64,000 nucleotides of DNA. Origin: Candidatus Stammera capleta. Lineage in GTDB: Bacteria > Pseudomonadota > Gammaproteobacteria > Enterobacterales > Enterobacteriaceae. Below, piece after piece: positions 6,747 through 9,676 of the stretch. Position numbers and translations under genes: made by a program. Under the pieces are notes generated by a model. The model saw only the letters and a list, made by a program, of their open reading frames with translations. It was not told the DNA's origin and did no database searches. How positions within the stretch are numbered: the stretch's first letter is position 1; every line of letters begins with the position of its first letter. Location of the stretch: assembly GCA_036689335.1 (NCBI GenBank), contig CP144796.1:10338-74337 (forward strand). Direction: 5' to 3'.

Positions 6747-8540
6747 TTAAACAGTTTTAGTAAATTTTTTATAAAAAATAATTTTTTTTATATCATTTTT
6801 GTTTAAAGTTTCGTATTTTATTAATTTTTTTTTCATTTTATGTAATATATTTATATTTTTTAAAAGAATTTTTTTAGCACGTAAATAATTTTTGTCTATG
6901 ATCTTTTTAATTTCTTTATCTATTAATTTAGATATATAATTTGATAAAAATGTATTTTTAAAAGTTTTTGTATCATCTTCATCATTATTAGAATATAATA
7001 ATGGACCTAGTTTTTCTGAAAAACCTCATTTAGTTACCATATTTCTTGCTATTGAAGAGGCTATTTTAATATCATTACTTGATCCTATAGATATATTTTC
7101 TTTTCCATATATTATTTCTTCAGCTAATCTACCTCCGTATAATGTAGATATTTTACTTTCTAATTGTTTTTTATTAATATTTATATTATCGTTTTCTGGG
7201 AGAAAAAATGTTGATCCTAAAGATTTTCCTCTAGGAATTATAGTTACTTTATGTACTGGATCGTGTTCTGGAACTAATTGACTAACTATAGTATGTCCAC
7301 ATTCATGGTAAGCAGTTAATTCTTTTTGTGTATCTGACATTATTAATGATTTTCTTTCTGTACCCATTATTATTTTATCTTTAGCTTTTTCGAATTCTTT
7401 CATAGATACGTTATTTAATTTTTTTTTTGCTGCATATAATGCAGCTTCATTAATTAAATTAGATAGATCAGCTCCTGAAAATCCTGGTGTGCTTTTAGAT
7501 ATAATATTAATATCAACATCTTTATTTAAAGGTATATTTTTAGTATGTATTTTAATTATTTGTTTTCTTCCTTTTATGTTTGGTAAGTCAACTATTACTC
7601 TTCTATCAAATCTTCCAGGACGCATAAGTGCTGGATCTAGTACATCAGGTCTATTTGTTGCAGCTATTATTATTATTCCTTTGTTACTATCAAATCCATC
7701 CATTTCTACTAACATTTGATTAAGAGTCTGTTCTCTTTCATCATGACCACTATTTATATTTATTCCTCTTTTTCTTCCTACAGCATCTATTTCATCTATA
7801 AAAATTATACATGGAGAAGTTTCTTTAGCTTGTTTAAACATATCTCTTACTCTTGATGCTCCTACACCAACAAACATTTCTACAAAATCAGATCCTGAAA
7901 TACTATAAAAAGGAACTTGTGCTTCTCCAGCTATAGCTTTTGCTAAAAGTGTTTTACCTGTTCCAGGTGGTCCTATCATAAGTATTCCTTTAGGAATTTT
8001 ACCTCCTAATTTTTGAAATTTATAAGGTTTTTTTAAATATTCTACTAATTCTTTTACTTCTTCTTTAGCTTCATCACAACCGGCTACATCTTTGAATGTA
8101 GTGTTTATATTATCTTTATTTAAAATTTTAGCTTTACTTTTTCCGAAAAAAAATGTTCCTTTACCACTATTTTGTATTTGTTTTATTAAAAATATTCATA
8201 ATCCTGTTAGCAAAATAATCGGTAATCATGATATTAAAATAGATATTATAAAATTAGGTTCTTCTATTGATAAACTGCTAATCTTAATTTTTTTATTTAT
8301 TAATTTTTTTAATAAGTAAGGGTCATTTATTGGTATATAAGTTTTATATTTTTGGTAATTTTTTTTTGTTACGTTAATTTCTTTACCATTTATTTTAACT
8401 TCTCTAAGTTTGTTTTTTTTTATATCTGATAAAAAACTAGAATATTCTATTTTAGGATAATTTTTTTTTTGTCCTATATTTTGAAATGTAGACACTATTA
8501 TTATAGTAATAACTAACCAAAAAAATAAATTTTTTATCAT
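6747..8540 (-). CDS. ftsH: ATP-dependent zinc metalloprotease FtsH
   Basis: 597-aa single frame. Track fragments are joined by TGA (8226-8228, 7026-7028 and others). Walker [22 protein letters not shown], and the HECGH zinc motif are present. Very high similarity to E. coli FtsH. Confidence 0.95.
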
Positions 8541-8561: not shown

Positions 8562-9172
8562 TTAATTATATTTAAAGTATAATGCAATTATATATATTTC
8601 TTTAGAAAAATTACGTGAAGATTTTAATTTTTTAATTTTTACGATTTTAAATAGTTTTTTAATTTTTTTTATAGTATAAGAAAATATTTCACTTAAAAAA
8701 ACTTTTATAACCAAATTTCCTTTTTTTTTAATTTTTTTTTACATAAATTTAAAATTGTTTTTATTATTTTTTTAAATTTAGGATTATCTATTTCTTTTAT
8801 TCCTGATATATTAGGAGATATATCAGATAAAATATTGTTTATTTTATATCGAGATGTTTTTTTAATTATTTTATTGAAAATTTTTTTTTTACATATATTT
8901 CCTAATATAAAAATTGTTTTTAAATTTTTATTTATAGGTTTTATATCACAACTAAAAATTTTACCTGTATTTTTTATTTTTTGAGTTAAAAATTGTGTTC
9001 AACCTCCAGGTGAGCATCCTAGATCTATTATATTATCTTGTTTCTTAATTATATTGAAATTTAAATTTATTTCCTGTAATTTAAATCATGATCTAGAAAT
9101 TATTTTGTTCTTTTTTTTTAAATTTATATATTTATCATTTATATGAATATTAATTCATTTTTTTTTTTTCAT
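8562..9172 (-). pseudogene. rlmE: 23S rRNA U2552 2'-O-methyltransferase RlmE/FtsJ, interrupted by a 1-nt frameshift in an A9 tract
   Basis: The N-terminal part (frame of 9172) gives ..RSRSWFKLQEI..DLGCSPGGWTQ..LSDISPNISG... The C-terminal part ..GNLVIKVFLSEIF..KIKKLKSSRNFSKEIYIIA is in the other frame. The switch lies in the T9-A-A-T9 block at 8721-8740, and the uninterrupted frame stops at 8705-8707. Confidence 0.75.
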
Positions 9173-9205: not shown

Positions 9206-9676
9206 CTATTTAATATTTATTATTTTATATTTTATGTTTCCTTTAATAGTTTTTAAAGTAATTGTTTTATTATTTTTTTTACCTAAAAGCTTTTTAGCTA
9301 AAGGAGAATTTATAGAAATAAGTTTTTTTTTTACATTTGATTCATCATCTCCAACTATTCTATAAATTATTTTTTTATTATTATTTAAATTTATTAATGT
9401 AATTAAAGATCCAAATACAATTTTTTTATTGTTTTTTATTTTTGATATATCTATTATATTTGCATAAAAAAGTTTTTTTTCTATTTCTTTAATTTTTTTT
9501 TCACATATTATTTGTTCTTCCTTAGCAGCATGGTATTCAGAATTTTCTTTTAAATCTCCAAATTCTCTTGCTTTTGATATAGATAATATTATTGATGGTC
9601 TTATAATTTCTTTTAAATATTTTAATTTTTTACGTAATTTTTTTTCTCCTTCTATAGTCATTAGTATTCTTGTCAT
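9206..9676 (-). CDS. greA: Transcription elongation factor GreA
   Basis: 156-aa ORF MTRILMTIEGEKKLRKKLKYLKEI.RP.I...I.KAREFGDLKENSEYHAAKEEQ. Confidence 0.92.
   Translation of the reverse strand: MTRILMTIEGEKKLRKKLKYLKEIIRPSIILSISKAREFGDLKENSEYHAAKEEQIICEKKIKEIEKKLFYANIIDISKIKNNKKIVFGSLITLINLNNNKKIIYRIVGDDESNVKKKLISINSPLAKKLLGKKNNKTITLKTIKGNIKYKIINIK

Follow-up and report, generated by a model that had tools for sequence, protein, structure and literature searches.

The question raised by the rlmE (ftsJ) locus in the window, meaning the whole 64,000-nucleotide stretch of the Candidatus Stammera capleta genome analysed here, is whether a gene whose reading frame is broken by a single nucleotide can still be functional and, if so, by what route its full-length product may be made. 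Three contigs of 310 kb, 5.9 kb and 9.1 kb make up the genome, which totals 325 kb and has a G+C content of 17.8%. A comparative-genomics preprint on Stammera describes the use of genetic code 4 and the presence of one or two plasmids of 2.5–9 kb; at rlmE, code 4 is evident from TGA encoding Trp within the PGGW and RSWF motifs.

Organisation of the rlmE locus and identity of its product

The gene order greA-rlmE-ftsH is the same as in E. coli. The features of the locus, in coordinates of the window, are as follows.

9206–9676, minus strand: greA, immediately upstream of rlmE on the same strand.
8562–9172, minus strand: the entire rlmE (ftsJ) locus, in which two overlapping frames jointly encode 203 amino acids.
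8720–9172, minus strand: N part (frame A), 151 codons, from the ATG at 9172 to the AAG at 8722–8720.
8732–8740, minus strand: first A9 run (Lys-Lys-Lys), in frame, interrupted in eight of the 11 members of the frameshifted clade.
8721–8729, minus strand: second A9 run, the putative slip tract; neither the run nor the GG after it varies among the 11 frameshifted species.
8720–8726, minus strand: A_AAA_AAG inside the second A9 run, which from its sequence fits the X_XXY_YYZ pattern of a −1 slippery heptamer read in the 0 frame.
8705–8707, minus strand: 0-frame stop codon (TAA), four codons past the tract, which ends the unshifted product of 155 amino acids.
8565–8720, minus strand: C part, comprising 52 codons in frame B (shifted by −1 from frame A), of which the first is GGA at 8720–8718.
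6747–8540, minus strand: ftsH, immediately downstream of rlmE on the same strand and the source of an independent phylogeny.

On the minus strand the tract reads TGT (8743–8741), A9 (8740–8732), TT (8731–8730), A9 (8729–8721) and GG (8720–8719), in agreement in every detail with the preliminary description of the window. That description's placement of RlmE motifs upstream of the tract and of GNLVIKVF in the neighbouring frame was likewise borne out, with Pfam FtsJ matching both parts, and translation with code 4 gave the expected 155-residue product ending at the TAA that it had named. Frame B proceeds from GNLVIKVF to SKEIYIIA and a stop at 8564–8562. The addition of one A to the second A9 run restores LKKKGNLVIKVF, giving ...LCKKKLKKKGNLVIKVF...; the proposal that a change from A9 to A10 in this run would rescue the frame was confirmed by the continuity of the FtsJ profile at the junction. 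The joined parts match Pfam FtsJ (PF01728) over profile positions 2–180 of 181 (E 1.6e-42). Taken separately, the upstream part matches positions 2–132 and the downstream part positions 133–180, such that nothing is lost at the junction, and the break is a clean one-base deficit. Two features go beyond the preliminary description, namely that the site doubles as a −1 slippery heptamer, and that only the second A9 run is conserved; the first lies outside the mechanism considered below.

The joined product is predicted to be RlmE (FtsJ), the 2'-O-methyltransferase active on U2552 of 23S rRNA. The top NCBIfam matches are the RlmE equivalogs TIGR00438 (179.5 bits) and NF008390 (172 bits), both over the full length, with scores that fall under the curated cut-offs of 300 and 269, as in our view would be expected of so divergent a protein. 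Alignment to E. coli FtsJ (1EIZ) covers residues 25–198. The catalytic tetrad of the E. coli protein (RrmJ) is taken to be K38-D124-K164-E199, and the alignment places the tetrad at WFK, SDISPN, IKVF and SKEIY. The N part thus carries the SAM-binding GCSPGGW motif and the catalytic residues K31 and D117, equivalent to K38 and D124 in E. coli, while the C part carries the catalytic K of IKVF and E of SKEIY (E. coli K164 and E199). The tetrad motifs and GCSPGGW are invariant across all 11 frameshifted species, and the break site corresponds to a surface loop that matches L155-A-P-G-G159 of the E. coli protein. The unshifted 155-residue product has neither K164 nor E199 and, being without half of the catalytic tetrad, is presumably inert. 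The idea that this frame might supply a second functional product was considered and rejected, given the two missing residues and a tail that differs between species (EIWL or EI).

Distribution of the break and selection on the gene

Comparison with relatives, as advised in the preliminary description, revealed the same A9 break, seen as split matches, in 11 of the 45 Stammera species-level genomes. All 11 read [T/C]TA-A8-GG[A/C/T]-AAT-[T/C]T[A/G], in which A9 and then GG are invariant, while the bases that flank the run vary at third positions of the shifted frame (GGA/GGC/GGT and TTA/TTG/CTG) and, upstream, between TTA and CTA. The remaining 34 species have the junction in one frame, with the pattern L-x-x-[NKDQ]-G-N-L. 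In a tree of FtsH, which is independent of rlmE, the 11 species form one clade (SH-aLRT 99) with one change, which shows that the deficit arose once, in the ancestor of the clade. The crown of the clade lies at 0.30 of the depth of the genus crown. Set against the origin of the symbiosis about 62 Mya given in the comparative-genomics preprint, a crude clock would place the event roughly 20 million years ago, a figure that represents inference rather than dating. A very recent inactivation, which had been one of three explanations offered for the lesion, is excluded because the break is common to the whole clade. Among 400 genomes sampled across the order, rlmE was not clearly split in any other, with two large genomes giving double matches, and an exact look-up of the C-part ORF of the window returned no match.

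A second of those explanations, a homopolymer sequencing error in which the true run is A10 and has been under-called, proved to be extremely improbable. Homopolymers are error-prone, and a SufB-like gene elsewhere in the genome has an A15 break that is private to this assembly. However, the chemistry reported for the Stammera assemblies in the preprint is Illumina 2x150, and A9 is found in twelve GenBank assemblies, comprising those of the 11 species, which stem from two projects (the CP0439xx series, with G011 and G045, and the CP1448xx series), and the additional genome CP144802.1. Logan re-assemblies of SRR10017629, SRR23946967 and SRR23946986 have A9 in all three cases, and hundreds of longer runs in the genome stay in frame, with two split genes set against roughly 690 coding A-runs of at least nine. 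The Logan contigs of the locus are 11–25 kb in length and look like DNA assemblies; no RNA-derived assemblies of the rlmE locus were found among them.

The sequence on either side of the break is well preserved. In the 11 species the N part comprises 149–151 codons and the C part 52–54 codons, with zero stops and zero internal indels. Omega for the C part within the frameshifted clade, calculated by GY94/F3x4 likelihood with the FtsH topology fixed, is 0.118 (likelihood ratio test against omega = 1, 65.9; p = 5e-16). By the NG86 method, the C part has a pN of 0.082 and a pN/pS of 0.40 in the frameshifted clade, compared with a pN of 0.098–0.132 and a pN/pS of 0.31–0.37 in two intact clades, whereas pN/pS for the N part is 0.25. 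The GY94 estimate for the N part (omega 0.005, tree length 29) looks dS-saturated and was not relied on. The C part shows no sign of relaxed constraint.

The run itself was then considered against the same positions in intact genes. The three codons ahead of the conserved Gly encode 20 different tripeptides in the 34 intact species, and six to seven of the same nine nucleotides vary within intact clades of nine and 12 species; these codons are hypervariable and so are not constrained by the protein. In the 11 frameshifted species A9GG is identical, and invariance at codons that vary so freely in intact relatives indicates that the run itself is under selection. Under the fitted model, on which the values depend, three AAA codons would remain unchanged over the clade tree with a probability of ∼8e-14 were they neutral, and of 0.015 were they subject to ordinary constraint. 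Among other A/T runs of at least eight in the same 3.5 kb, length is kept in all 10 relatives for one of 20, and the empirical run-length test alone therefore stands at about 1 in 20. The A9 run behaves as a functional element, and the comparisons as a whole show purifying selection on both halves of rlmE, and on the run, since the break.

One substitution departs from this pattern of conservation: in all 11 frameshifted species a Leu replaces the Pro of the conserved K-P-x-S-S motif (window 8610–8630, minus strand), giving KKLKSS as opposed to YKPQSS, or RKPDSS in E. coli. This clade-specific change could reflect some loss of constraint.

It is very improbable, nevertheless, that rlmE is a plain pseudogene that was inactivated in the ancestor of the clade and is now decaying. 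The gene is out of frame, a conserved motif has been altered as just described, and E. coli does not strictly require RlmE (PMC9074899), all of which would fit with decay. Conversely, decay is difficult to reconcile with the low omega past the break, with 11 lineages that have acquired neither stops nor indels in a genome of 18% G+C, with intact catalytic residues and an invariant A9 run, or with a pN that is not above that of the intact clades.

Possible routes to a full-length product

The reading that we favour is that rlmE is a functional gene, the frame of which is broken by a one-nucleotide deficit in a conserved A9 run, and that its full-length product is probably made mainly via transcriptional slippage. 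A slippage-dependent gene was the third explanation in the preliminary description, and is supported by the purifying selection downstream of the break and on the run. RNA polymerase would slip on the nine-A/T hybrid such that a fraction of the mRNAs carry A10 in place of A9, and translation of these mRNAs would give full-length RlmE (...LKKK-GNLVIKVF...); A/T runs of nine are known to slip efficiently in vivo with bacterial RNA polymerase (PMC5009743). A_AAA_AAG is also a site at which ribosomes, decoding with the only tRNA-Lys(UUU), may shift by −1; this would give an identical protein and may add to the yield. Once the frameshift had been fixed the A9 run would have become indispensable, which could account for its invariance.

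There are, though, ∼690 A-runs of at least nine inside ORFs genome-wide, ranging up to A21, and slippage at A9 cannot be very efficient without damaging many of these ordinary genes. The limited efficiency in turn implies a low yield of RlmE. Slippage per run may be modest in Stammera; otherwise, a sizeable proportion of faulty transcripts must be tolerated. Additionally, transcriptional slippage leaves unexplained the finding that A9 has reverted to an in-frame A10 in none of the 11 lineages, even though this would take a single, common mutation.

A mainly translational route, with dnaX-like −1 programmed frameshifting on A_AAA_AAG as the P- and A-site tRNA-Lys re-pair one base back, is unlikely. 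The site is a perfect 0-frame X_XXY_YYZ heptamer, invariant in the 11 species, with a 0-frame stop two to four codons further on, and the product would be the same as that from A10 transcripts. As in E. coli, there is a single tRNA-Lys(UUU), and in E. coli the weak pairing of this tRNA with AAG renders the heptamer highly shift-prone (PMC5009743). Several observations nonetheless favour transcriptional slippage. All nine A's are kept although a ribosomal shift needs seven, the conserved A1–A3 of the run being unneeded for it. No stimulatory structure was found 3' of the tract (folding of the alignment gave −3 kcal/mol and no covarying pairs, and the single-sequence z-score was +0.45), nor is a Shine-Dalgarno-like stimulator or any GGAGG-like element visible in the 20 nucleotides upstream (AAATTTATGTAAAAAAAAATT), which vary among the 11 species. 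The heptamer occurs in frame 38 times within ordinary ORFs, with no evident avoidance. Moreover, E. coli frameshifts less when RlmE is lost (PMC9074899), and a purely ribosomal circuit would therefore tend to destabilise itself.

The correct frame could feasibly be supplied at the level of DNA instead, if polyploid symbionts held a minority of A10 copies arising by replication slippage beneath a consensus of A9. Homopolymers are hot spots for replication slippage, run lengths at other tracts differ freely between species, and such changes do occur, as shown by the A15 frameshift in the sufB-like gene, which is private to this genome. This explanation is improbable, however, since A9 is the consensus in all eleven species, in CP144802.1 and in the three re-assemblies, and the persistence of A9 as the majority form for so long would need an explanation of its own; mutS and mutL also appear to be intact according to the first reading of the window.

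Parallels with known systems and other frame breaks in Stammera

Slippage on poly(A) tracts in Buchnera and Blochmannia, the precedent invoked in the preliminary description, is borne out by the literature (PMC5009743, PMC3017870). As far as the account in PMC5009743 goes, 12–50% of the transcripts of frameshifted genes in these symbionts are corrected, and frameshifts conserved between Blochmannia species are on record (PMC3017870). Within what these two sources relay of Buchnera aphidicola and Blochmannia (Tamas et al. 2008), the likeness to Stammera rlmE extends to an A+T-rich, reduced insect-symbiont genome, a single-base frameshift in an A run of at least nine in a gene that is otherwise intact, the lack of accelerated evolution, and the occurrence of some frameshifts in several species. 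Stammera differs in that the break has been kept across a clade of at least 11 species, in the explicit evidence of selection on the run, with slippage itself deduced from sequence, and in that the run is of minimal length (A9) and doubles as A_AAA_AAG.

A parallel in the same gene is provided by Candidatus Providencia siddallii, a symbiont of leeches, in which a poly(A/T) frameshift in rlmE is inferred to predate the diversification of the strains (PMC10540940). Here too the gene is the rlmE of a reduced gammaproteobacterial symbiont, and one strain also reads UGA as Trp (PMC10540940), but the lineage is independent and the comparison is between three strains and 11 Stammera species. With regard to dnaX, E. 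coli employs −1 frameshifting at A_AAA_AAG whereas Thermus thermophilus relies upon transcriptional slippage at A9/T9 (PMC5009743). The Stammera site unites both types of sequence, and shares with E. coli the sole tRNA-Lys. Recoding of dnaX gives two useful products from a gene that is in frame, whereas in Stammera rlmE recoding would be needed for the only useful product, and the upstream Shine-Dalgarno-like stimulator and downstream stem-loop of E. coli dnaX are both absent. The phenomenon, then, is already known from Buchnera, Blochmannia and P. siddallii, and Stammera rlmE is a well-documented new case.

Some consequences would follow for annotation and beyond. The annotation of rlmE as a recoded gene, in place of a pseudogene, is warranted for 11 or more Stammera species, and probably for 24 of 45 when the breaks described next are included, which alters the ribosome-maturation functions inferred to have been kept by a genome of ∼0.3 Mb. 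The locus also illustrates an evolutionary ratchet, in which a frameshift fixed at a slippery run turns the run into a selected element that is detectable by comparative genomics alone. The recurrence of rlmE in unrelated symbionts, together with a site that is ambiguous between slippage of the polymerase and of the ribosome, makes it a compact test case for the share of each process in an extremely A+T-rich bacterium.

A further kind of break was noted at the 5' end of the gene. In 13 of the 34 junction-intact species (G007, G009, G010, G013, G017, G031, G034, G037, G038, G044, G046, G049 and G052) the one ATG present where the gene should start is separated from the coding sequence by a run of A8–A19 and is out of frame with it, examples being ATG-A14-TGA in G013 and ATG-A19-TGA in G010. 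The equivalent positions in the window are 9158–9172, where this genome (G000) reads ATG-A12-TGA, and the start ATG is in frame in all 11 of the junction-frameshifted species. These 5' breaks are independent of those at the junction and make up a second class of poly(A) lesion in rlmE, and about 24 of the 45 Stammera species need correction of the frame somewhere in the gene. Such a proportion suggests that a low yield of the enzyme suffices, and that the breaks become fixed by drift and are retained thereafter. It might be speculated that rlmE is a preferred 'slippage-gated' gene in reduced symbionts, with a low output set by a selected slippery run and an arrangement that has been reached repeatedly, as with the two different A-runs in Stammera and the case of P. 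siddallii. On this reading, which we consider improbable, supply of the enzyme could also depend on how the ribosomes are modified, given that Um2552, the modification made by RlmE in the ribosomal A loop, alters the efficiency of frameshifting in E. coli and that the site is both an A9 run and an A_AAA_AAG heptamer.

Finally, other split genes were sought by comparing this genome with the ORFs of the junction-intact congener G031 (271,175 bp). The preliminary description had regarded rlmE as the only broken gene, which holds within the window, where no other split gene was found, but not genome-wide, as the SufB-like gene is also split. These two were the only split genes detected, despite the abundance of long coding A-runs. 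The SufB-like gene (EPKWMLNFRLKSY...) lies outside the window and is shifted within an A15 run at ∼190,640–190,680 of contig C1, with the break centred on ∼190,660; one extra A restores the frame, and the five closest relatives all have an unshifted copy. In contrast with the clade-wide break in rlmE, this break is private to the one assembly, and would reflect recent mutation, polymorphism or an error in the homopolymer. Two further candidates on the same contig were false, that at ∼59.7 kb being an antisense ORF across two genes and that at ∼265.3 kb an ORF extending into a tRNA gene.

Two minor observations were made in passing. The GenBank record CP144833.1 (297,036 bp) is titled 'plasmid pStChz2, complete sequence' yet carries the chromosomal genes rplU-greA-rlmE-ftsH, and looks like a mislabelled chromosome record. 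The sole tRNA-Trp gene of the present genome (C1, 295,418–295,492) has the anticodon CCA even though TGA encodes Trp throughout, a combination that has already been published for Stammera (PMC10540940, Table 2).
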